The position numbers and the translations under genes were made by a program. Below the pieces are notes generated by a model that did not search any database, was not told the origin of the DNA, and saw nothing but the letters and a program-made list of their open reading frames with translations. A stretch of 62,964 bases of DNA, the filler included, from Collodictyon triciliatum (lineage: Eukaryota): assembly GCA_043381765.1 (NCBI GenBank). It is 7 parts of 7 records of this genome, joined end to end, with 100 filler letters (N's around TTAATTAATTAA, not from the genome) between each part and the next. Parts side by side here need not be neighbours in the genome. Positions count along the whole stretch, not along the records: positions 9,655 to 17,780 come from JBHJMP010002677.1; 6 more parts are not named here. One strand, written 5' to 3'. Below are positions 4,981-28,419 of this stretch, piece after piece. Positions within the stretch are counted from its first letter, which is position 1; every line of letters begins with the position of its first letter.

Positions 4981-7900
4981 TACTATTACTATTATATGGT
5001 GCACCACCCGATGCTCACAGTTTCTCAAAAGGGCACTCAATAAATTAAAGCCAGTAACAATTTTTCACCCAATACCAGGGATACTCTATCCAGTACTATA
5101 TGAAAATAATTTATAATGAATCTTATTGACAAGTACAGATGGAACTTGCAAATTTTCTCGACCCGAACGGAAAATCCTTCCCTCAGCTCGCACAGAAGCT
5201 TCACGAAGATATCACGCGTCGCTTTGGCGAGACGCAGCCGTTAGTGGAGTTGGAAGAGGTCCTTTTTTTTTATTTTTTAATTAAAACCTTCATTCCGTTT
5301 CAATTGTAAATTTATCTTTCAGAAAATGTACCCATGTGCTCACCGATATTCAAAATACCCATCCTGATGCTTAGAAAGTACCTTTGCGAGTCGATGCTTT
5401 GGTTGAGCTTTATCTAAGTGTTCTTCTTGCCTGCTCTTCGATTCATCAAGATGAGCCCATGCAGCCTTTTCTCCAAGCACCACAGCTCCAAACTCCCTCT
5501 ATCGACCGAATCGGTGCGCCAGATTTCTGTAATTTTTTTCTTACTTAACTGCCTTGATGGTATCTACATCCACATATACACAAAAATTATACATATTAAC
5601 ATATTTACAAAGAATTTTTGAACTAATAAACCTGTGAGAGTTAAAATCTCTAAAAAATAACAAATGATTAATTAATACCATCAGCCAGCAAACCAGAAGA
5701 AGGACCAAAACCTTGCCGTATTAGTTGTGGTTGGGCACATAGTGCGCTTGTGACAAGTACAGAAACACCTGCTTTATCCTTATTTCTTGACTATCGCTAC
5801 ATTTTAAAGTAGCCTATCGTCAATTTTACAATCCCTACCTCAATATGCGTTCTTCATCTTCAAGAAAGATTTATACTCAACTATCGTTACAGCAAAAGGT
5901 GCTATATACACTACTGGCTCAAATGACTTTGGACAGTTGGGACACGGAAATACAAGAGCGTATTTACAATTTACCAGAGTGATGAGCTTGAAATCAACAA
6001 AGATAGTCGATGTTTGTTGCGGAGCAGAGCACACAATTGCCCTAGGAGGTTCTTTACTTATATATTGTCTCGCTAATATATAGCTGAAGAATCACATTCT
6101 TGTCTTTAAATATGAAGGCTTTCGAATGATATAGTTTGATGATGAATTCAGACAATATCATTCTCCAGATAACGGAAATGTGTATGTTTGGGGTCGTGGG
6201 CAGCACGGGCAATTGGGACTGGGCTTACCTTTCCACCAACACGTCCCTCGGATTCTTGACCCTGCTTTGTTCAATGGGAAAGTAATCGCCGTCACGTGTG
6301 GCCATTATCACTCTATTGTGTTGACAGGTTTTGTTTCCTAGAACTATACATTAGAGTGCAACATTAAATTGTTTTTGTGCGCTACATCACCAAAATCTTT
6401 ATCTACATTTAATTATAAGGATGTACATTTTTAATCAACGAACCCACGGAACAGAAAAGGGATGCGTGTATTCATGGGGTTCAAACAGCCATGGACAAAT
6501 AGGCATTGGAGCAGGAAATAGAAAAGCATCCTTCTCGGAAACACGCAGTACAAGTCGGCCGGGGACTGTGACCGAAATACGGCTTCCTATGAGCCCCGAG
6601 CCAAAAAGCGTTGATTTCAAAAACGACCAACTTTTTCCAGTTCATATAACGAACTTGGATGGGCGTCATATTGTCAAAATAGCTGCCGGGTTCTGTCATT
6701 CTGTTGCACTTAGTGGTAATTTTCATTATGAACAAATCTACTCATTCCAGTTGTCAATTAATGAAAGACGGTCTTTGAAATCATCTCGATTTATAATTTT
6801 TTGCATTTCACCTTCATCTTTTCAGAAAATGGGGATATATACAGTTGGGGTGGCGGTCAATCTGGACAACTTGGATTGGGTTCAACACGAGACCAATACG
6901 CACCCCAAAGGATTGATACTGGAGGGAAGAGATTTGTGTCTGTTTCATGCGGAGCTTTTCACACCATCGCTCTGACAGGTTAGTTCGTATTGCCTATAAA
7001 ATACTCATCAAAACGCTCGTAAATTATCTCTAAATAAATGTTTCTTTCTTCTGCTTCGGTATTTATCAAGCAACCAAGAAACACTTTTGATTTACTGATT
7101 ACTTTTCCTCTTTTAATTTTTTTTCAGATATCGGGGGAGTTTACACATGGGGAAAGGGCTCAAAGCACAGACTTGGACATCCCGAAAATCTTGCAGACAC
7201 AATCGTGCCAAAATGGGTGGCAGGTTTACGAGGAGTTTTTGTCCATAAGGCTGCGTGTGGACACTACCACAACATGGCGTTTTCCATGGGTACTCTACCA
7301 ATAACTTTATGGATTTAATTTTCATTAGAGCATTTTCCTTTCCATTTTTCTTTCTTTGTGTGCAAACAAAATATACTGAGCACACTCATTACACAACTTT
7401 GTAGACAGACTAAACTTTGTTTTATATTTCAATAATAGAATCAAGCGAGCTGTTTGTTTGGGGAGAAAACTCTGCCTCTCAACTGGGGATTGGCGTCACT
7501 GAAAATAAAACTGTTCCGACAGTTTCTTCATTTTCATTCCCTGCACCCATAAAAGAGCTGTGCTGTGGAGAAGAATATTCCTTTGTTATCCTAGGTAAAT
7601 CCTGTGAAAGTGTCGGCTCTTGAGTTGGCATTTCGATTTCTGCACCAGACTTTTACAGACACCGTGCTATAGATGTTTATGAATATTGACATTATATTCA
7701 TGGCTTAAGTGATACATGCAATTCAGAAAACAATGAACTCTATTCTTGGGGGCGCGCTGATGGTGGGCGTCTTGGGTTGGGGTTGGTTAGTTTGTCCTCT
7801 ATGGCAAACCCTGCATCTGTAGATCTTTTTTTGGATGGTCCGATTCCTTCTGGATTACATTTCGAAAGTCAGACAGGAAATAGTTCTCTAGGTTTGCTGA

Positions 7901-9428
7901 TTCATCGAGTCTTTCTCTGTTGTTAAACTAGTTGACTTGTACATTAGTTTTTTTGTGATATAGAGATTGCAACCAGGCTCTTCATATCCATTCATTTTCC
8001 TTTTCCCTTTCTTTCCCTCATATTGTATTTTTTTTTCCATTAACCTTTGAAATGAATTTTCATATAAATACTTATTTCGCTTTTTTTAGTCTATGGACAA
8101 AAAGCTTTGGAAGAGTGCCTCCGAGATAGATTTCGGTTTTACAGGCCAACTGTCATGTTGCGTAGATGCTTCGACTGGGTGAATTGGTCTGCAGCTTCCA
8201 TCGTAAGATAGAATCTGAACCAAACCATCGCTTTTCCAACATAATCAACATAACTTCACTAATTCCATGTAAGACACATTCACAAATTACTGCGTAATGT
8301 ATTTTTTTCCGTGTATTGTTACAAAGTATTGTAAGGTATGGATATATAGTTTCCTCTATACTATAAATACTAACATGTTTATATGCCCCATGATTACGAC
8401 ATTTAGATATATGAACAGATGGAGGATTGGCCAGAAGCATTAGAATGTAAATTGAAGGCAATAGACCAAGAAAGCCAAGAGTCAAGAGGAAATCAAATCA
8501 CTGAGGAAAGTATTCAACCAATATTTTCATTCCTTTCCAGGACGAAGAATGACGAAGGTCGTACTAGAGTTCTGCTTCAGGTAAAAGAAGGGAAAGAAAA
8601 AGAACCGGCAAAAATACGGATTATTTGCTGAAGCCTCTTGTTTCTTTTTGTTTCTTTTTAATTTTAAAGATGTAAATATACACCGATGATGCTTTTGACT
8701 ACGTTCAATAGTTAGCAACCGAGTAAATATGAAACAAAACACATTTTTGATTCCTTCTAATACGAGGACTTTAAAACCACTTTATTTCAATAGCTTTTCA
8801 AGTTCTGGAAAGCAACTTCGCTTCCTATTCGCCACCTAGAAAAGTTCCTGCTGGACCACGCAGACTCTCTCATGGTCTGTCTTTTCAAAGAGTGGTTATA
8901 AAATATCGTGGCATATCTACGCTTTTCATTATCATTTTTATCTTTTCAAAACTGTTCATAACTTTCCTACAACCGGAAAATATGATTATCATAACTGGGG
9001 CATGACAGATTCCCATGGCCGCACTATTTGACTTGCCTGAGATGACGGCGCTGCCTTTTTCACCTAATCTTCAGTTCAGAGTCGCATCTTTTATTCTTTC
9101 GAACATGCCGGACCAAGTAGATGATGGTCTGTCTCTATAGCCCAGAACAGAGATACTGCGGCACTGATTTATGTCATTTCTTTATATCTGTTCTAGTATT
9201 GGCCATGAAGATTATATTATGACTATCTGCAAAGGCGATGTATGTATATGAAAAGGTAAACTGATTTTTTCCTCTCTTTTGCATATCAAAGGGCAAATCC
9301 CACATGAGCGTCTCTGGACAGAAATCAAGACCAACCTCGAGAAGGACATCGACCTGCGCACCCGACTGACCATTCCTTTGGTCACCACGCAGGCCCTCAC
9401 ATCCGACTCCACAACCCCGGAAGAATCA
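186..9428 (+). CDS. Multi-exon RCC1-repeat protein, claret-like architecture (N-terminal beta-rich region, alpha-helical middle, RCC1 propeller, helical C-terminus); partial at both ends
   Basis: GT-AG exons give RCC1 repeats at ~5680-7860 (IYTTGSNDFGQLGHG, VYVWGRGQHGQLGLG, VYSWGSNSHGQIGIG, IYSWGGGQSGQLGLG, LFVWGENSASQLGIG). Upstream exons include GCRWWPC, MLLIQTKGGGCFRLLLE and EELADETFERGDFDRALQLY. The last exon (LWTEIKTNLEKD) ends at a GT donor before the spacer. The RCC1 call is firm; the claret-like label is from recalled architecture only. Confidence 0.8.
1233..1283 (+). mobile_element. Micro-insertion CGAATAAAGGAAAAA with a perfect 18-bp TSD (intronic)
   Basis: ACTATTACTAACCATTCT (1233-1250) + CGAATAAAGGAAAAA + ACTATTACTAACCATTCT (1266-1283). 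Confidence 0.8.
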
Positions 9429-9554
9429 GTAAGGCGCGTTAAATGTAATTACCTGAAGAGCCAATTATATCAAAAAAAAAAAAAAAAAAAAAAAAAGGGG
9501 GAGGGGGGGAAAAAAAAACAAATAAAATCTTAATATATTTAGCGTTGTTTTTTT

Positions 9555-9654
9555 NNNNNNNNNNNNNNNNNNNNNNNNNNNNNNNNNNNNNNNNNNNNTT
9601 AATTAATTAANNNNNNNNNNNNNNNNNNNNNNNNNNNNNNNNNNNNNNNNNNNN
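9555..9654. other. Artificial contig spacer N44-TTAATTAATTAA-N44; also at 17781-17880, 28320-28419, 38846-38945, 49368-49467 and 59890-59989
   Basis: Identical 100-nt layout six times, with stop codons in all six frames; a separate plain N gap lies at 47788-48056. Confidence 0.97.
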
Positions 9655-10712
9655 GGAATTTTATAAATAAAAAAAAAAAAAAAGATTTTTTTTTTTTTTT
9701 TTATATTTAAATTATAAAAAAAAAAAAAAAAAAAAAAAGCTTAGAACTTATAATATCATTTTTGGCTCGTTGCCATGAAAAGTTGGATCTCAATTTCATT
9801 TGATCGAATCTATATTTAGGTAATATTTTAAAGGGAAAAAACCTTTGCAGCAAGCATCACATCTTCATAGTAGTTTGTGTATGTCCATTTTTTCCATTTC
9901 CCCTCGGCTTTTACGCACAAGGCGTATGCAGACGGATATCTAAGAAAATGGATCACTATACTTTCGATAATATATTACAATAATTGTAGCTTGTAATTGA
10001 TCTCGCCGATGTTCTGATTATGAGCAGTTTGTATAAAAAAATACGACGAATCAAGAGTTACTTCTCCACTGTCTGGCGAAAAAACTGGGGTACAGTCAGA
10101 GACTCAGACTCTGGCAGTTTCGAACGCTGTGGTCTTGGTGGCATTTTCTCAGTATCAATCCAGTCGCTTCAACTCCTTTGCTCGCCTATCCTTCTTCTCT
10201 CGGCCGGTTACTGAATGTTATGAACCATTAGACTTTTTATTGAACTCTTGCGCTATTTTTTACAGCCTCGGTCAAGTCCGGGTCCACATGGCACGCGAGA
10301 CAGAAACCCCTGGCTGGGCATTGGTCTTTGACTCTGGCATCAATCGCCTATCCAACCCACGAAACAGCATTGGCTTTATCATACGCGGGCTTGAACGCGG
10401 TTTTGATTTAAGGATGGAGTCAAGGGTTGGAGCGAGCCGGCGAATCAGTTTTGCCGCGGAATATAACTCACTGGCCCACGACTGCAAGTTGTCCTGTACC
10501 ACTGCTTTGCGCATGGTCAGAAACTTGTTCCGCTTTAGCTCCCCCAACCTGGCCGGTTTGACACATTCGCCCGCGCTCCGTTGCGCCGTTTTTCTCCAGC
10601 TGGAAACGCGCTTGTTGGGAATGAACCGAAGAGGAAGTGCCGATTTTGGTAATTTCAATATGTGGAATATATAATATTATTCATTTTTAAAACTTATAGT
10701 CATCAATTTTAT

Positions 10713-10873
10713 ACATGTTTTAATTATTTTTTTCCTTTATTCGATTCAAAGTGCAGTGAGGCTATGCCATACAAAGGGGCGAGATAGCTGCGCCAGGAAG
10801 AGAGCAAACGCCAGTAGAGAAGACGCTGCTGTATTGGACGATGCTTTCAAGCGTAGTAAACATATTTTAATTA
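10713..10873 (-). mobile_element. 133-nt poly(A)-tailed retroposed insertion (10727-10859) with a 14-bp target-site duplication; longest copy of the micro-insertion family
   Basis: On the minus strand it ends ...CACTGCACTTTGAATCGAATAAAGGAAAAAAA. Flanked by ACATGTTTTAATTA (10713-10726) and ACATATTTTAATTA (10860-10873), one mismatch. Confidence 0.75.
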
Positions 10874-10903
10874 AAATTTTGAACTTATATATGATATATG
10901 TAA

Positions 10904-12942
10904 CTAGAAGGGGCATACAAATCTTTCGAATGGTAAACTTTGTGCGCAAGTATCCAAGGTCTCACCACTTTTTTCACAGAGGTCGTGTAGTGGTGTAGGC
11001 TGCCAGGAAAGACCCGACAGCCCGTTTCTTTTAGAGGAACGTGTATGCATATTTTGAAGGATTAAAAAAACTTTCTTGAGTATATTCTTTGCGCTGTTAA
11101 AGTCCCTTGTCAAGAATACACTTTGTTTGCTTTCTGAGCGATTGCATTCTTTACATATGATACATCTAAACACTTTTTTAGTATTTCCTTTCAGTATCAT
11201 ATATTCCAGTTCTTTTTTCGCAGTTGCAGCACATTTTAAAGGTTCTAAATTCATCCACACTAACTGCTTCAAAACGTTTGGATAGTACTTTTCGTAATCC
11301 TCCTCCAATTGTTGGCATAAAATGTTTCATCGGGGATTTTCTGCTCCAGTCTCCATACGCCAGTATAACATCTTTGGCAAATGTCTTTTCGACTCAGTCC
11401 ATAAACAATTGCTAACTTCTTTTTGTGTTAACATACTGTCTCCATCTCATCTTTCAAAAAGTTACTTGTTCATAAAATCTGGAAAACTCTATCTAGTATC
11501 TTGATTACATAGATACATATTTTCGAAATTTTTCATAATCGACCATGCATGAATTATGTTAACTCAGTTCTGCCTCTAAATCGATTAAAGATACTCTTGA
11601 TGTCGAATAAAGGAAAAAAAAGATACTCTTGATGTCTCAAACCGCTGGTTCTCTTCAAAAGTCATGGTACCAAAATAAACAGCACTTTGTAAACATGTTG
11701 CCATGCATAACCCTGAAGCATTTTACTTTCCTTTTTTCTCGCGCAAGAGTATTTTGCGATTTTCAAGAGATTTGCTATCTCTTCTTCGGTGGGCCGTGTA
11801 ACGTAATTTCTTACCTGTCTCATCCACCATGTAAACAAAATTAAACTTACCTGCGTCCACTCTGTCTACATTTTTTTCGTCTCCAATAAAGATAACTGCT
11901 CTTCGGAAAGTTCATCTATATAGACATATTCTTGGTTTTTGATTATATTTGAATTTTGAATTTGAAACACCTCTCTTTTCAAATAGTAATGACCCCGCCA
12001 AGCCGTCTGTTTGTATCATGTATTTAAAATTGTAGTCTCTTTGATGAAAGACCCTCTTCTTCATTTCAAAGAAGTCGTCGCATAGTGTCTCTTTGCATCC
12101 TGATATATTATATATTAATGATATTTTCCAGACAATACTAATAGACCTATCAAACATGCGGTATCTAGAGTAACATGACACGGTATATTGTTTGTTATTA
12201 TAGAGATTGGCTGAAACAGTTTGGTTCCAATGTCCTCAAAAATGCGATTCATGTAAATCAGACATGGACTGTACTTATTTGGATTGGCTTTGATGTCCAT
12301 TCGATATCTTTTACAATATCGCCGGGAATGATACCATGCAAATGCGTTATAGCCCATCCTTTATATGTTGTTTTGGTATTTCGGGTTTCTTGAAGATGAC
12401 TCTTTTTTTTTTTCGTAACTCTGCCTTTTAATAGCTTCCGTCATATTCTCATCTTTAGGAACTGTTTGATTTATAAAGCGTAGTAACCTATTTACAAAAT
12501 GTTCCTTCATGTTATTATGGTAAGCTGTTAGCATTTGCATCCCCAAGTACGGTAATACACGAATCAATCTAACCAACGGAAAGCATTCTTCTCGGGACAA
12601 AAGGAATCGGAATTCATTGAGATAAAAAGTCATCTTGTCATCTCTCATATCTGGTTTTTTTTTAAAACTTGCGGTTGTATCTTGTGAAACTATTCCGACT
12701 GCCTTTAAAGAGTACGAGAAACAAATTTTACCGATTGTTGGGAGTTGTTGTGATTTCAAATGTAACATCTCGCATACAGATAAGTGTCGGTAACCAAATT
12801 ATGACACAATAGACCCGTATCGTCGATTTTTTTCATAGTCATTCACATTCTTAACAATCGACTTCAGAGATGTTTTCAGATTTCGATAGTGTGGTTTTAC
12901 AGACTTTAGATTCTCAAACTGAAGACGTTTTCTTTTCTTCAT
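10904..12942 (-). pseudogene. Decayed Fanzor1 (eukaryotic TnpB/Cas12-related RNA-guided RuvC nuclease) of a mobile element
   Basis: Across frameshifts: MKKRKRL...LKTSLKSIV; TAYHNNMKEHFVNRLLRFIN; DIKANPNKY..LIYMN..KLFQPI..IPCHVTLDTACLI; YNFKYMIQTDGLAGSLLF; RuvC-I VDAGKFNFVYMVD then KLRYT; ILAYGDWS..MKHFMPTIGGGLRK; RuvC-II VSVDEFRT.KMCCNC; CKEC zinc knuckle; RuvC-III TRDFNSAKNI. Several frameshifts and in-frame stops. Confidence 0.88.
11587..11636 (+). mobile_element. Micro-insertion GAATAAAGGAAAAA with a perfect 18-bp TSD, inside the Fanzor
   Basis: AAAGATACTCTTGATGTC (11587-11604) + GAATAAAGGAAAAA + AAAGATACTCTTGATGTC (11619-11636). Confidence 0.8.
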
Positions 12943-13780
12943 CTGAAAGTCTCTGTTTTACTTTTTCCTTTAGAAAACTACCGATTTTTCAAATTTAATA
13001 AAACGTTAGTCAATCAGTCAATAATAAAAACTGCACAAAATCAATTTATGTAAAATTAAGCATCTACCGAGACTTTCAAAATATGCGCTTTGTGGCAAAC
13101 AAACACTCAAAGTTTTTTATGCAAGTGATTTGTGGTAAAACGCTGAGGGCCGATTCGGCGAGTTCGAAAGGACGGCCGTATAGTTATTGTGGCTGAAAGT
13201 CAACATATCGGCCCCAAACAACATGATTACCGCCGCAAGTGTGGATAGTATGCTTTTTTTGAAATGTGTGTTTGGTGGCAGGTTTATGGTGTGGGTTCTG
13301 TCTGAGCCAAGACAAGGGCTCGTTTGTAATCTTTGAATTATAATGATAATATTGTATAATGGATAATAAAATATAAATTGATTACAGGAATAGAATGAGG
13401 TTGTTAAGAGTTTTGAACCTTGAGAAGGGCGGGATGACCGTGTGGTTATTCGCCTCCGGGTAGATATTTGGCCTCGGGACCAAATCCAGTTCAGGGCCTC
13501 TGGTAGTTGCAGCTCTTCAGAGCTGTATTTATTCTCAGCCCTCTCAGGTGCATAGTGATGAACCACGAATCCCACTTCCGTACCAAGCCGGCCTGCACCA
13601 TTATCCGACACACGTTTCTGCTTTCAACCAAGGCGCATACAACTACGTCTGACTGTAAAAAAATCTAAACCCCCTTCCTACCCTTGGGTCGAATAAGGAG
13701 AAAAAAATATTGCGCCGTGTACACATACCAAAATCCTAATATATGATAGATTGGAGACAGATCTCTTTGTTGCGCATCTG

Positions 13781-16700
13781 ATGTCCCAATCTGTCAAAAG
13801 TCCGTTGTGCGTTATGGCCTTTGGGCGTTTGTGGCATTCAATGCAGAAGCGCGTCAGGCTTTTCGGAGGTGTATCGCCAAGACCATTCCCTGAGTCCACA
13901 ACAAAGATTGTGACCGATCCCCTGCGGCGAAAGGGATGCGTTTGCCATTTTTCTTCGACACACAACCGAGTTCTCTCAACTAAACTCACCTTTTGTGGCC
14001 CACTACGTTGCTGTCAGCTCCGCGGGATAGCAAGATGCTTTGTTGTGGAGGAAGAAATGACGCGGTAGGGAAATATACTCTTCGCTGGCGGGCTAAGTCT
14101 CTCGTTTTGCTCTTGTTTTCTTTTTCTTTATTTTTCTATTTTCATTTTACTCCGACCAACAAGAAATTGAAGAGGAAAAAGAAATAAAGATGTCTTTAAA
14201 AAATAAGACAACATTCTCATTTCGGCTTTATTTTGATGTGTGTTAGAGAACACTTTTTTTTTATTTTTGTTGGATTGTGGCACTAGATTATTCATTTAAT
14301 GGGTGCGTTTTTTTTTTTTTTTTTGTTTAGAAGGGAGACACACCGGCTGGTGGCAAGGGTGGAAGTGCCAACCTCATTCAAAAGTAAGGCTTATCAGATC
14401 AATATCATCATTCAGTCTGCATAAAATGGCTCTCTTACAGGAAAATATTTATTCCAACGAAAAATCAGGTGAATACTGTGTTTTGTGTTTAATGGTTTCC
14501 TATTTGTAGTAAGGTATCATACAAAGGCTCAGAATACCTATATGCCGTTCACTTGGCTTGTGTAGCAGCCAATGATCCTTGTGAGGACAGATTCCTACTC
14601 AACCCAAAGGATTGTATCTACGGGGTTTGTTTCTATCATCATAATATACTTTACTACTTAATTTAATTAATTTATTTAATGTCCCATTTTAAATTTTTTT
14701 ATCAATCATATGATAGTCATTTACTCGTTAGACGAAAAACATTCTTATTATGATTTTTTGAATTATTTTTCCTTATTATAAAAAAGACCGCCTTGAAAAT
14801 CATGCGGAAACAAAGCTAAATTGCATTTTGTATTGATGCGATAATATAAGGTCTTTGATGGTCACGGGGGCGCGGATATTGCTGAATGCTGTACGACGAT
14901 GATGAATAGGCACATACTCAATGAGCTTTCAGAAGCACCGACAAACGTTTGTTTTCCCAAAGGAATCGAAATATACCGTTGGTTCAACAGATGAAATAAA
15001 ATATTTCAGTAAATACCAGTGCTTGTCAACAACCTCAATTGGTTATATATACAGGGAGAGGAAGACATCCACCGTGCTCTAGAACAAGGATTCATGAAAA
15101 CAGATAGAGAAGTACTCGATACATTTGTCCTGCAAGACCCTCACGGCAGGATGGCATTTATTGGCTCATGCGCTCTCGTGGCCCACATACGAGATTCCAC
15201 CATATACGTATCTAATAGCGGGGATAGCAGGTTGTCAATGAAATGTCATAATCCTTCCGAACGCATTTGATTTATTATTATGATTATTATTATGATTGTT
15301 ATTATGATTGTTATTATGATTGTTATTATGATTGTTATTATGATTGTTATTATGATTGTTATTATGATTGTTATTATGATTGTTATTATTATGATTAATT
15401 TTATGATTATTATGATTATCCCTCGGTCCTGCACAAAAGTTGAAAGGAAGAATAAAAAAATGATTATTATGATTATGATTATGATTATGATTATGATTAT
15501 GATTATTATTATGATTATTATGATTATTATGATTATTATGATTATTATGATTATTATGATTATTATTATGATTATTATGATTATTATGATTATTATTATG
15601 ATTATTATGATTATTATGATTATTATTATGATTATTATGATTATTATTATGATTATTATGATTATTATGATTATTATGATTATTATGATTATTATTAGCG
15701 ATCTCCTATCACAATCCGACGAGCATATTTGGAATTTCACCATTCTGCCTTACACTGTTCGTATACAGAGCTGTTTTGGGGTATGTTTCAGGCGGAGCAC
15801 CCCAATGCAAGTGGTTATCCACTGACCACAATGCTAGCAGTGAATCAGAACAAAAAAAGGTGATCGAGCGCTCTGGTGATGAGAATGCTATCCGGTAACT
15901 CTCTGTCCATCTACACACTGAACGAAATGAGTTTCCTCGGAACATTACTACATATAAAAAAATCAAAATTTATTATTTTTTTCGGCGGCAAAAATAGACT
16001 TTCCCCATTAAACATGATGCTTGGAACAACGTCTGCACCAAAGCGAGTGGCTGGAATTTTGCTTGTTACTCGCGCCATTGGAGATGCTTATTTAAAAGTA
16101 ATTATTTTCCTACCCATCATTTCTGTTTCATGTCAGATAAATATATTTTGTTTGAAAATCATTCTCACATGTGCACTTAATCCTCGTGTAAAATTGATGA
16201 TCTTCAATCCGGGCATATAATTTGGGCATGCAAACTAAAAAATATATGTACTTGTATCTTAACGTTCCTATAAATCAAAGCAAGGGGAGCTAGGAAACCC
16301 ATCAGAGAAGTCGTATATAACCGCCGAGCCCGAAATTATGTCTCATAAAATCACCGAGAATGATTTATTTGTCGTTCTGGCAACAGACGGGTATACATTT
16401 CCCCCATTTTATTTGCCAGCACGTACACATTTTTCAGGATATGATTTCTATATTTCAAAATGTAAAGCAAACAAATAATCATAATTCTAAGTACGCTATA
16501 TATCCACGTCCTATCGTTTAGACTCTGGGAGCATCTTTCTCCGGATGAAGTTGTGAATTTTATCTATGAGCACGGTGTGGATGACCAAGTTGCAACCAGA
16601 CTTCTTGAAGTAACATAATCTCGCACTCAACAAATAATATTGCCTCTTCACCTAGCTCTCGGCCTTGTTTGATAGCGGGCTGGCCAATAGATTCAAGAGG

Positions 16701-16878
16701 GAGATGCAATCGAACGCACCGCTTTCCTTTTAATATATAATAACACACACAGATTATGCTCAGAAAGGTGGCGATGAAGAGAGAGGTCCCTCTGGAGAAG
16801 CTTCTTACCCTACCATCCTCCGCAAGAAGAAATATGCACGACGATGTTACCCTGGCCATCATCTCCCTGAAGAAATAA
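13781..16878 (+). CDS. PP2C-family Ser/Thr phosphatase, pyruvate dehydrogenase phosphatase-like, with a probable mitochondrial presequence
   Basis: Exons encode AANDPCEDRF, YGVFDGHGG, GSCALVA...YVSNSGDSRAVLG, LSTDHNA, RVAGILLVTRAIGDAYLK, YITAEPEI, VVLATDGLWE and RRNMHDDVTLAII, with TAA at 16876-16878. Exon 1 is Arg/Ser-rich with few acidic residues (MAFGRLWHSMQKRVRLF). Start ATG is 13781 or 13814. Confidence 0.9.
15270..15697. repeat. Compound (ATT/ATG/GTT)n microsatellite in a PP2C intron
   Basis: Direct reading; source of the poly-Ile/Met ORFs. Confidence 0.95.
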
Positions 16879-17223
16879 TCACCCACACCAAACAGACGCG
16901 AGAGGTCTACAATCTCATGATAAAAAAATATGACACCATCCTCCCCTCAACACCGGATATTTCTACATCTGTAAATCCACAAAAGAAAAAACCGTTGCTT
17001 CTGCCAAATCATGCCGCGATTGCAAAGAAACGGCGGATTGGCTCGTTGCCAGAAAGTGCATTGCAAGGTTTATCGCCAGAGTCTGGTTGAGCAGGAAAGA
17101 CCGAGCGAGTAGCCAGTAATACCAACAAACAATATCTGTTAATTTAGAATAGTAGAAGTGAGAGAAAGAGAGTAAAAAAAGGTAGAAAAGAAAAAGGAAG
17201 TTCTATGTAATGTTCACAGCCTG

Positions 17224-17473
17224 CTATGCGGTGCCTCGTGCGTGAATCCTTGTCTTTTCTTTGGGCCAGGCAGCCATGATCCTTGTGGTATTGTCAAGGG
17301 TTTTAAAGGATTGGTCTTTGCCAGTCAATGTCAACGCAGCGGCCGCGATCGACGCCGCCACTTCGCCCGATGTCTTCAACGCCGCCGTCGCGTCCGGGTT
17401 CGTCTCTTGGCCAAAGCGGGGCGCCCTCTGGGTTTCTACAGGGCCAAAGTGCGAATGCCAGTCGCGAAGCGGA
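17224..17473 (-). CDS. Possible terminal exon of an unknown gene cut by the contig end
   Basis: GC-rich open frame after a TTTTTAAAG acceptor (PLRDWHSHFGPVETQRAPRFGQ...RIHARGTA*); no recognisable domain. Confidence 0.3.
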
Positions 17474-17615
17474 CTTTAAAAACACCTTGACGATGAAGGA
17501 CTTGATGATTGTCGGTTTTTTTTTATTTATGCTCATATTCTATGCTTTTTTTTGTTTCACTACATGCGATTGTGCTCATTTACATTCGTGTTTTGATCAA
17601 ACGAAACACTTTCAA

Positions 17616-17780
17616 GTTTATTTAGTTTATTTAGTTTATTTAGTTTATTTAGTTTATTTAGTTTATTTAGTTTATTTAGTTTATTTAGTTTATTTAGTTT
17701 ATTTAGTTTATTTAGTTTATTTAGTTTATTTAGTTTATTTAGTTTATTTAGTTTATTTAGTTTATTTAGTTTATTTAGTT
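17616..17780. repeat. (GTTTATTTA)n 9-mer tandem array at a contig end; (TTTTTATATG)n follows the spacer at 17881-17971
   Basis: Direct reading. Confidence 0.95.
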
Positions 17781-20072
17781 NNNNNNNNNNNNNNNNNNNN
17801 NNNNNNNNNNNNNNNNNNNNNNNNTTAATTAATTAANNNNNNNNNNNNNNNNNNNNNNNNNNNNNNNNNNNNNNNNNNNNTTTTATATGTTTTTATATGT
17901 TTTTATATGTTTTTATATGTTTTTATATGTTTTTATATGTTTTTATATGTTTTTATATGTTTTTATATGTTTCTTTTTTCCTTTTTCTTTTTTCCTTTTT
18001 CTTTTTTCCTTTTTCTTTTTTCCTTTTTCTTTTTTCCTTTTTCTTTTTTCCTTTTTCTATGCTTTTTTATTTAAGGAATGTTGTTGCTCTTGTGGACTAT
18101 TATCGAAAGTACAAGCGCCTGTTGCTGACCCCTGCGACCGGGGCTCCGTCAGCGCATGCGCATCAGAAAAGCCGTCGGTTTTCGCAAGCAGGCTCGGTTG
18201 ACACATCCAGATCCACTTTTTATTTCTTCGTATTGTTTTCTCGCAAACGAATATTCCAAATCAAGAAAAGAAACTGCCAAAATGCGATTCCCACATTCGG
18301 GTGCGCCGAGCTTTGAGGCAGGTTTGAGAAAAAACAACCAGACAAAGCGGGTTCGGGGAATATTCCGTGTCTTGGATGTTTGCAAACGGAGCCGCGTTGG
18401 TCGGTGCCGCAACTGCCAGAAATGTCATTTATAGAAGAGGAATCCGTTGAGTTCTCGAATTACAATAATGTTGCTATTTGTGGTAAATATTTTTCTTACA
18501 ATTTTTTTGGATTAATGCTGGCAGAATGTGGCCAAAAAAGAGACAACTTAGTGTTTTACGTAATTATGTTGAGATTATATACTATGCGATCCTATTCGAT
18601 TGTGTGAACTATATCCTATGCTGTGCAATATGTTTCCGCGCAGAAGCGACAAGCAGGGAAGTTACAAATGCGGTGGATTTGATGTATTCCTTGGTTAGGT
18701 GTGAAGATGAAGAGATAAAAAAACAAGCAGCCTCATTGGCACTCCTCGATAAGCTCTGCATTCGATTTCATCGGTAGTCGTGCCTATGGACACCTCGCCT
18801 GCCATGAATCGTGATTAAGTGAGAAAGTCTATCACCAAAAAAAAACTTTAAGTCCTGGGATAGGATACTAGAATATTGGCATTTCTGCACGCTCTGTGGT
18901 CGAAATAAAAAAAAAATATAATATGTTGAGATGGTTCTCAATAAGCAACTGATATAGCCTCGACCCTGCTCTGGCCAGTGAAGAGAAATGCCAAAAAAAA
19001 AAAAAAAATCAGGAATCAGTGAATACGCGGACCCTATGCCGGGCTGGTTGAATTCTCTCGATAATGCGAAGCCCAGCACAGAATGAACCTATTCCTACTA
19101 GTCTTTGGTATCGATGCATAAAAATTGGGGCTGAAAGAATTCGAATAAAAAAGACCTCGAAACTCCCAAAGAAAGAAAAAAAAAAAAAGAAAAGCAACCA
19201 TCTGGGTATAGGAAATAACCTATGGCTATCAGAAATAAGGCTGTTATGCCGTGTGATGAAGGCCAGTGTATGAAAAAAAAAAAAACAGCTCCACCAAGCT
19301 ATTGCTGTCATCGTTTAGACAACAAAAAGGTTGAAGTCCAACAACAAAAGGTGGTGGCTGGTTATGTTAAATCCTGTCGATATAATTGCAAATACTGTAA
19401 CAATAATAACCACAAAAAGGTGAATCTGTGGAAGGCAAGAGAAATTAAGTATTACAGTGCATAATTCCCACAAATGTATAAAACAAATCACAAGCCTCAG
19501 CTTCTATTGTGGGATTTGTGGTGTTCGCAATAAGTAGCACATTTTTGATCAAAGCGGCGATGCGTGATCCGGCCGAGTTTCTTGATGACCCTCTGCGTTG
19601 CTCATCCTGAGCGAGAAGCACAGCAGCCCAACGATACACTGCGGCAGCAGAGTGATCACTACTTGCCGGGCGCGTATGTGCTCAACCGGCTCCACATAGC
19701 CGATCAAAACCAGCCTTAGCTCTTTCTCTTTGGCTTCCTCATAACCCACACACCTCCAAGCCGAAGAACCAGAAACCCTCTGGCTTTTGTTTGGCGGCGA
19801 CCTTGCACTCTCCCTTCTATGTTTCTCTCAGCCTTGCTGCTCCCACTCTGCCTGTCCCTGATCTACCCTGGAATTTTTCTTTGGCGCACCCACTCTTTTT
19901 TTTTTTTTTTTTTTTGTCTTTTCTTTGCTCAAAACGCGCCCGTGAGTCAGCCACACAAAACTCGTGCCCCGCCTTCACAGCACCAAACCTTGAGAGAAAA
20001 AGGCTTGTGTCAAAGGGAGGGAGTCCTAACCAAGCACGGCTAAGCAGACCCTCAATAGCAGGGAGGCAGAAA

Positions 20073-26960: not shown

Positions 26961-28134
26961 TTACTGGTCGTCGCCGAGCACTCCAAACATGTTGCTGGAG
27001 ATCGGTGCGGCCTTCGGCTTTGCGGTTTCATACCACGCCTCCACGCCAGTTTTCTGCCAGGCGAGAAAACAGCCTTAGACGCGTACCACTTTCAATCGAA
27101 GAAAGAAAAAAAGAAGATAGAAACATAAAAACAGGATGGTAGTATGTCAACCCATCTCAGTAGGTTGCGCACATACACATACCGATGGGGGCTTTTGTCG
27201 CAGGGCACTGTTTGACCACACTACGGCTCCCTTTGTGTCTGCTTGAGAGGGCCTACAGACATTACGATGGTCAATCAAGTGATATATATATGCACGGGCA
27301 CACCATGATAAATCATTTGGAAAGAGGGAAAAAATAACGGATCTAGATGAGGGTTAGAAGGAGCTACTTTTTGGTGACGGTTTCAGCGCCGAGTTTGGGG
27401 AACACCATCTCGCTGAGTTGAACTCCTTTGGTTTGTGGCTCTGCGGCGGCTTTGATTTGAATGGGTGTATGAGGGGCAGGAAGGTGGGGTTATGCACATG
27501 TTTTTGTCAGCGAAGGTTGATGGGGATTGAATTTCGTCGATGGTGGAGAATAGAGGGGAGGACTGTTGGCCAGAGGGTTTGCCACAGTCTTTTGCATAGT
27601 TGGCTGTATGCGTATTTACATCCATTACCCTCGCGCGTTGCGTTTGCCCACTTGGCCTCGGAACGCTTCACTAAAAAGGGTTGTAGTTAAAGGTTGGATT
27701 ATACTTTAAGTATGATAAAATGCTTTGGATTGTGGAGAAATAATTGTTTGGAGCGTTGAGGAAACCTACCTTCTTGTTGGGCTTGCTCCTCCCTGAATTT
27801 AGGGCGTTTTGTGTGTAGACAAACAAAGGACGAAGAAGGGGTAAAACAAAACAAAACAAAACAATAACAATATATTAGTATCATTCGAGTGTCGCTCCTT
27901 TAATCGAATAAAAGAAAAAATTATTCGATTATCACTTGCATTTTACTCTCGAGGCACGGATGAAGCCAAGGCTCATGTAATATCGAGTATATGGAGTTTG
28001 AGGAAGATATAATTAAGAGTTACGCACACCGAAGCGTTGGACGTAACGATGGTCTTTGAACCTGCGGTCACTCTGTTTTGTGCAACGTCGACAGAGGCAG
28101 TTTCTTCAACCCAACCCTGGCTGTCTACTTTGAC
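26961..28134 (-). CDS. Small low-complexity protein, CDV3-like motif order; 5' end lost at the spacer
   Basis: Seven short exons splice with consistent phases to VKVDSQGWVEETASV...EVKRSEAKWANATRE...EMVFPKLGAE...VWSNS...PISSNMFGVLGDDQ*. The family label is tentative. Confidence 0.6.
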
Positions 28135-28419
28135 CTGATAGGTGAAGTAGAGGTAAGGGAAACCGGGTGCATAAGAAAAAGAGAAAAGAGAAAAAAAGAG
28201 AAAAAAAGAGAAAAAAAGAGAAAAAAAGAGAAAAAAAGAGAAAAAAAAGAGAAAAAAAAGAGAAAAAAAAGAGAAAAAAAAGAGAAAAAAAAGAGAAAAA
28301 AAAGAGAAAAAAAAGAGAANNNNNNNNNNNNNNNNNNNNNNNNNNNNNNNNNNNNNNNNNNNNTTAATTAATTAANNNNNNNNNNNNNNNNNNNNNNNNN
28401 NNNNNNNNNNNNNNNNNNN

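Follow-up and report, generated by a model that had tools for sequence, protein, structure and literature searches.

A decayed Fanzor1 gene in the genome of Collodictyon triciliatum and the transposable elements that carry its relatives

The window analysed here is a stretch of 62,964 nucleotides from the protist Collodictyon triciliatum (assembly GCA_043381765.1), made of seven parts of seven records joined end to end with filler, and all positions are counted along that joined stretch. Its minus strand carries, at 12942-10986, the remains of a Fanzor1 gene. Fanzor1 proteins are eukaryotic and viral relatives of TnpB, zinc-finger nucleases with a split RuvC domain that are guided by an omegaRNA. 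The pseudogene is delimited by alignment to the protein P0003, by colinear pieces of a family profile and by matches to solved structures in the PDB. It is colinear with residues 1-642 of P0003, an intact relative of 648 residues, and 381 of the 632 aligned codons are identical between the two. That frameshift-aware alignment of protein to DNA was made with an in-house script using its own gap and shift penalties, so the break positions that it gives are approximate. Homology to P0003 stops near 10986 (residue 642 of 648), and the open frame continues to a stop codon at 10907-10905.

The motif set named in the first-pass annotation of this DNA (MKKRKRL, TDG, VDAGK, VDEFRT, RDFNSAKNI and two CxxC knuckles) is present in full on the minus strand. 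The start codon and the basic MKKRKRL occupy 12942-12922; a similar basic run is found in most relatives, with only K3 invariant, and in the relic's ancestor it would plausibly have served nuclear import. Fanzors are described in PMC10530073 as carrying nuclear localisation or N-terminal import signals. NNMKEHFV (12493..12516) is the relic's version of the most conserved N-terminal motif of the family, N[LI]KEHFV, and aligns with the corresponding helix in the solved Fanzor1 proteins of Guillardia theta (GtFz1, 9cer), Parasitella parasitica (PpFz1, 9cf0) and Spizellomyces punctatus (SpuFz1, 8gkh). The TDG motif at 12010-12002 is invariant across the 14 relatives introduced below. RuvC-I is represented by VDAGK at 11860-11846 (VDPGK in the family) with its acidic residue retained, RuvC-II by VDEFRT at 11258-11241, whose glutamate is matched by the family's invariant E and by D-E-F/Y-K/R-T-S in PpFz1 and SpuFz1, and RuvC-III by RDFNSAKNI at 11107-11081 (TRDLNSA in the family), again with the aspartate retained. 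The first zinc knuckle, CCNC at 11231-11220, is placed by both the P0003 and the family alignments, and a frameshift in an A run near 11216 parts it from the second, CIICKEC at 11164-11144. Among the 14 relatives, VDAGK, VDEFRT and RDFNSA correspond to the invariant columns D364, E555 and D604, and the knuckles to columns C562/C565 and C587/C590. The relic hence keeps the D...E...D RuvC motifs and the insert with two CxxC pairs between RuvC-II and RuvC-III, and its family profile resembles characterised Fanzor1 over the full length.

The assignment to Fanzor1, which had been made from motifs, is upheld by comparison with solved proteins. Two read-through translations were prepared, P0001 from 11636-11181 with X at six stops and P0002 from 12942-12118 with X at two stops. 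In the PDB, P0001 matches PpFz1 (E 2.2e-7), SpuFz1 (E 1e-4) and GtFz1 (E 1.4e-3), and P0002 matches GtFz1 (E 7.5e-6) and PpFz1 (E 1.4e-4). When P0002 was used to query a large protein collection, 14 proteins of 621-661 residues were recovered, the best being P0003 (E 3.7e-59), an environmental ORF and the nearest relative known. Their alignment, A1, contains an invariant DPG, E-x-x-T-S-K, two Cys pairs and R-D-x-N, and all 14 proteins bear the precomputed Pfam accession PF26935. At E 0.01 or below, the A1 profile finds three distinct sequences in the PDB, every one a Fanzor1: PpFz1 (E 3.5e-65), SpuFz1 (E 1.6e-60, profile positions 4-610 of 622) and GtFz1 (E 8.7e-48). No TnpB, Fanzor2 or Cas12 chain was found in the PDB at that threshold, where there may be no Fanzor2 chain to find. 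Pfam PF07282 (Cas12f1-like TNB) matches two of three scanned members, P0014 at 32.3 bits and P0005 at 24.4 against a cutoff of 26.3, and a Pfam search of eight standard-code ORF pieces of the relic itself returned nothing relevant. Against the six-frame translation of the whole window, the 14-relative profile matches at the relic locus only, in four colinear pieces (profile 3-370, E 1.5e-53; 285-418, E 2.3e-29; 415-553, E 1.3e-51; 538-605, E 5.4e-18). This likeness is far beyond chance, and the failure to match a RuvC-family profile that might have overturned the assignment was not seen.

Relative to P0003, the relic has undergone about 11 changes of frame and has acquired nine in-frame stops, four of them TAA (11725, 11561, 11507 and 11033), two TAG (11495 and 11414) and three TGA (11639, 11456 and 11396). 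The profile matches, taken frame by frame, independently demand at least seven frame changes. No intact, expressible reading frame is left, the longest open piece being 145 codons, and the motifs are spread over three minus-strand frames (stop-to-stop ORFs, 10904-12957). With the three RuvC acidic residues in different frames, no protein that has all three can be made from the locus. The relic is a dead, non-functional Fanzor1 copy, as the first-pass annotation had proposed; that annotation spoke of frameshifts, which are there, and the damage is heavier than it stated in that nine stops accompany them. Hypermutation of the RIP kind was considered and rejected, as the window and its siblings differ by almost as many changes in one direction as in the other (in public run X3, 124 T>C plus A>G vs 115 C>T plus G>A).

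The relic sits in a gene gap of about 4.8 kb. An RCC1-repeat domain match at 6355-6975 lies some 4 kb to one side as counted along the joined stretch, in which the record that holds the relic runs from 9,655 to 17,780. About 3 kb to the other side is a host-like ORF read by eye as PP2C, an exon that has no Pfam match. Two blocks, 10024-10674 and 13117-14068, flank the relic and are GC-richer (about 44% GC) with long ORFs on both strands, of 216, 134, 168, 123 and 111 codons, none of which matches Pfam; the 216-codon ORF (10024-10674) has no homologue among 1.84 billion representatives. The relic was also described as nearly intron-free in a genome of intron-rich genes. This description holds in that the frameshift-aware alignment to P0003 contains no intron-sized gap, whereas 860 bases of an EF-Tu-like host gene appear to be interrupted about three times by GT...AG introns, candidates picked by eye in place of a spliced alignment.

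Relatives of the relic are abundant in environmental DNA. A single-query search of viral and metagenome contigs with P0003 recovered no relative, and a scan that used the alignment as query detected relatives in 218 of 329 candidate stretches of giant-virus contigs (IMG/VR), many of them named GVMAG bins, and in at least 506 of at least 608 candidate stretches of metagenome contigs. Among the matches listed by that scan, no viral or metagenome locus exceeds 47% identity to P0003. The family is therefore not new: its members are heavily sampled, it has been assigned PF26935, and its profile aligns end to end with a solved Fanzor1. The earlier suggestion that a new Fanzor family from an unsampled lineage might be defined through intact siblings is unsupported as regards the novelty and the sampling, and survives as regards the existence of less decayed siblings, which are described below. 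A quick maximum-likelihood tree was built of 34 rows, consisting of the window read-through with X at the breaks, eight database proteins and 25 ORFs from viral and metagenome loci; one row was kept per 75%-identity group of 142 sequences, with five near neighbours added back. The window copy pairs with P0003 with support 100 on a stem of 0.89, and its own end branch (0.67) is longer than that of its sister (0.23). The pair lies among interleaved viral and metagenome rows, and since the tree is unrooted (midpoint root only) it gives no direction of transfer between virus and host.

The relatives occur within recognisable elements. In pairwise comparisons of the 66 viral elements whose ORF has 600 codons or more, with near-identical duplicates set aside, the shared DNA mostly extends from about 415-445 bases before the start codon to about 65-115 bases beyond the stop codon. 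A right-end motif of about 26 bases is sharply conserved in 27 of 29 viral representatives, and its exact inverse is found upstream of the Fanzor gene in 25 of the 29. Eight two-ended giant-virus elements measure 2370-2411 bp, with perfect inverted repeats of about 30 bp at their ends (L032:1056-3427, with similar spans in L019, L034, L051, L052, L060, L063 and L066). A conserved small ORF of 88-125 codons precedes the Fanzor gene and is present in 76 of 160 fetched loci; its product looks like a coiled coil. In longer elements the left repeat is followed closely by an opposite-strand ORF encoding about 340 residues, and five of the seven upstream ORFs that were scanned combine a helix-turn-helix with DDE_3, the IS630/Tc1/mariner type of transposase. 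Some longer elements also carry a cargo ORF between transposase and Fanzor, such as the 499-residue ORF at L025:4366-5862 (minus strand), in which the treble-clef zinc finger DUF4379 is repeated four times and the endonuclease-like DUF559 matches weakly. About 60-100 bases beyond the stop of the Fanzor gene in L043, one element's right end meets an inverted end, so placed that two elements lie end to end or nested, and in L030 a second copy of the right end follows the first at about 190-220 bases past the stop. These layouts suggest repeated insertion at or beside existing copies.

The last bases of the relatives' Fanzor gene, together with the stretch up to the right repeat, form a structured RNA of four helices. 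Across its 24 pairs, 93.9% of cells are paired, as compared with 46-57% when the partners are slid, and fourteen pairs vary on both sides, a count attained in none of 500 shuffles. A covariance model finds this RNA in 65 of 80 metagenome loci outside its training set, and these are spread over all main branches of the family tree. Of the 68 matches, 66 are on the strand of the gene, and those that were compared with the ends of the ORF matches begin just 3' of the ORF. The layout is as expected for the guide scaffold of a Fanzor or TnpB system, and a role in guiding cleavage is probable by comparison with published Fanzor work (PMC10432273, PMC10530073).

Next to this anatomy, the window copy keeps the gene body only: a 3' omegaRNA, inverted repeats and a transposase are absent from it and present in the relatives, the RNA as a structure. 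A search for inverted or direct repeats around the relic gave only A/T runs, and comparison of its two flanks with each other gave nothing. The end motif of the relatives has no match in the window with three mismatches allowed, nhmmer with the relatives' upstream and downstream DNA returned nothing significant against the window, and their small upstream ORF has no match near the relic. The covariance model of the 3' RNA, run over 9000-15000 with filters off, gave no significant match, the best (E 0.085) having broken stems and lying on the wrong strand, and tRNA and Rfam scans of the window were empty. It had been noted that no transposase is recognisable nearby, and a query specific to the family agrees, the relatives' DDE_3 transposase reaching at best E 0.73 by tblastn in the window and nothing by profile search. 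The 3' side does offer a hint of an edge. A contig of public run X1 matches the flank at 10700..10931 with one difference and stops at 10931, which would put that flank outside the repeated family, and the listed pieces of diverged sibling contigs start at 10932 or later. On this hint, the repeated unit would end only some 35 bases beyond where the stop is expected, and the guide region may be truncated in the window copy.

Taken with the anatomy of its relatives, the locus is very probably a decayed, non-functional Fanzor1 copy that arrived as part of a transposable element and whose ends, guide RNA and transposase have been lost or have decayed. With the window copy yielding no target-site duplication, element end or guide RNA, how it arrived is read from relatives of about 37-47% protein identity. 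In the proposed history, the Fanzor1 gene would have travelled in an element with a perfect inverted repeat of about 30 bp at either end, in a short form of about 2.4 kb with the small upstream ORF or in a longer form with an HTH plus DDE_3 transposase of the IS630/Tc1/mariner type just inside the left repeat. A structured RNA starting near the end of the gene and extending into the right repeat would have acted as guide scaffold, by analogy with Fanzor and TnpB systems, and the nuclease would have cut DNA matching the sequence beside the element end, presumably favouring persistence or spread of the element. One copy of the gene would then have landed between two host genes, lost its ends, its guide RNA and any transposase (or seen them decay past recognition), and gathered point nonsense mutations and small indels until it did nothing.

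These elements resemble systems already described. Fanzor1 genes in protists and giant viruses, and their association with mariner-type and other transposons, are in print (PMC10432273, PMC10530073). Proteins of the relic's family are compact (620-660 residues) with a basic N terminus, like solved Fanzor1. In the three solved proteins as in the family, the N-terminal helical region is followed by the TDG strand, the RuvC-I D, the RuvC-II E, the two CxxC knuckles and the RuvC-III D; the alignment of the family profile with SpuFz1 is end to end, and those with PpFz1 and GtFz1 fall into two to three stretches. These solved proteins are distant relatives reached by profile, a single 152-residue piece of the window scoring no better than E 2e-7 to 1e-3 against them. 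TnpB (of IS200/IS605 and IS607) and Fanzor2 likewise combine a RuvC nuclease and a zinc ribbon with a guide RNA from the 3' end of the element, and their partners are Y1 or serine recombinases in contrast to the DDE_3 transposase of the relatives studied here. The closest parallel is an integrated giant virus of Chlamydomonas reinhardtii, for which a preprint (bioRxiv 10.1101/2024.09.03.611062) describes Fanzor1 elements that include an IS630-Tc1-Mariner transposase, others made of Fanzor alone with a guide at the right end, and, in a host chromosome, a Fanzor fragment related to giant-virus copies. Judged by the description of their layout in that preprint, these elements have the same organisation as the relatives reported here, whereas neither end nor guide can be recognised in the window copy. 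On the Chlamydomonas precedent, the window copy is the same kind of object in another host.

The same precedent bears on a different origin, in which the relic would be a scrap of an integrated giant-virus genome and would not stem from a transposon moving about the host genome. The preprint (bioRxiv 10.1101/2024.09.03.611062) describes Fanzor1 passing between a host and the giant virus integrated in it, most relatives lie on contigs filed as giant-virus bins (the 218 of 329 stretches above), and viral and metagenome rows are interleaved around the clade of the window copy. However, the tree does not show which way transfer went, and no viral gene was found near the relic, where the flanking ORFs lack Pfam matches and the 216-residue one lacks homologues; its neighbours, at the distances given above along the joined stretch, are instead the host RCC1 exon on one side and the PP2C-like ORF on the other. 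Several diverged copies in sequencing runs also suit a dispersed repeat. An origin as viral scrap is on balance unlikely.

The evidence for those copies comes from contigs of four public runs from four studies, aligned on the relic stretch at a likeness of at least 80%, which span 28-30 of its 30 bins. In run X3, 393 contigs were placed, 54 at 99% or above, 68 at 95-99%, 144 at 90-95% and 127 below 90%; several diverged copies of the gene exist, the summed contig depth not being equal to copy number. Sense codons stand in sibling contigs at five of the nine stops of the relic (AAA, CAG, CGA, GAA and CGA, for K, Q, R, E and R), encoding the P0003 residue in four cases and a similar one in the fifth, and small indels occur in siblings at or near six of the frameshift sites. 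Less damaged siblings therefore exist in public runs, on contigs too short to judge any one of them intact. Public sequencing runs were also searched by sequence words, and among those listed none contained more than 0.09 of the words and none was an RNA run.

The siblings also weigh on the reading that the gene is really intact and that its breaks are assembly errors, introns or reassigned stop codons. The assembly is a draft, with 797 N in the window (joining filler included), four of the 11 frameshifts fall at A runs of 5-7 bases, and sibling contigs vary by one base at 11213, so some of the frameshifts could be errors of assembly. Such errors would not rescue the gene, given its in-frame stops, and at least seven frameshifts lie away from homopolymers. 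A variant genetic code was rejected as the source of the stops: all three kinds of stop are in frame, and the sibling residues K, Q, R, E and R fit no single reassignment, TAG taking the place of both Q and E of the siblings and TGA that of their R. Four host protein domain matches, moreover, lie within standard-code open frames, and host frames extend up to 272 codons under that code. The stops are private mutations of the window copy.

As for introns, a candidate is the segment 11726-11596, which starts with GT, ends with AAG and on excision would join two frames in phase, removing two stops and one frameshift. The segment (11596..11726) coincides with a variable insert of about 33 residues after RuvC-I that is present, in the family alignment, only in the window copy, P0003 and P0053. 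Both of these intact proteins keep the insert open and in frame, though its sequence is very divergent, so an intron is disfavoured and a variable coding loop fits better. An 18-base direct repeat occurs at 11636-11619 and 11604-11587, and one sibling contig is without 32 bases there. Taken as a whole, the reading of an intact gene is highly improbable, and the preferred interpretation remains that of a dead copy. That the host has co-opted the relic, for instance as a regulatory RNA or a truncated protein, has next to no probability: nothing favours it directly beyond matching contigs in one run guessed to be RNA, and against it stand the longest open piece of 145 codons, catalytic motifs in three frames, stops private to the window copy and the lack of any Rfam match in the window.

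Compared with solved Fanzor1 proteins, the sub-lineage of window copy, P0003 and P0053 is set apart by its extra loop of about 33 residues after RuvC-I, the window copy being in addition broken. The sub-lineage may differ from other relatives in its element ends or its partner. It is conceivable, though offered only tentatively, that the three represent a host-resident sub-lineage of the giant-virus Fanzor1/mariner elements, with the loop as a fast-evolving mark and with a changed or lost right end and scaffold, of which intact, active copies persist in a freshwater eukaryote. If so, the siblings would form a natural series from live to dead copies and would offer a direct case of exchange between giant virus and host.

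By itself the relic matters little, being an ordinary fossil for which the label of Fanzor1 pseudogene will do. Its presence marks this host genome as a past carrier of Fanzor1 elements of the giant-virus type, and the less damaged copies in public runs mean that a genome-wide search could recover an intact nuclease with its guide. The by-products of the family analysis, namely the element of about 2.4 kb with its 30 bp inverted repeats, the small upstream ORF, the DDE_3 partner and the covarying 3' RNA seen in 65 of 80 loci, may serve the mining of compact RNA-guided nucleases more than the relic does.

Some features of the window outside the gene may be recorded. Runs of N lie at 9555-9654, 17780-17880, 28320-28371, 38850-38893, 47790-48060 and 49370-49420, filler included in their total of 797, and are often found beside long microsatellites, among them a 12-base repeat at 15236-15500 and runs of trinucleotides around 49.0-49.4 kb. 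An element end at 10727, to which loose contig ends had pointed, was considered unlikely because the 24-base motif found there is widespread in the window. This motif of about 24 bases, containing AATAAA, occurs on the plus strand at 27087-27112, 27894-27923, 36417-36445, 44168-44191, 44382-44406 and 52194-52225 and on the minus strand at 10730-10753 and 41381-41406, against a chance expectation of 0.00 matches in the window, and may be a host promoter, a 3'-end signal or a tiny repeat. Around the first minus-strand site, 81 bases at 10728-10808 (minus strand) are 72% like 60325-60403 (plus strand), which lies just upstream of a dynamin gene.
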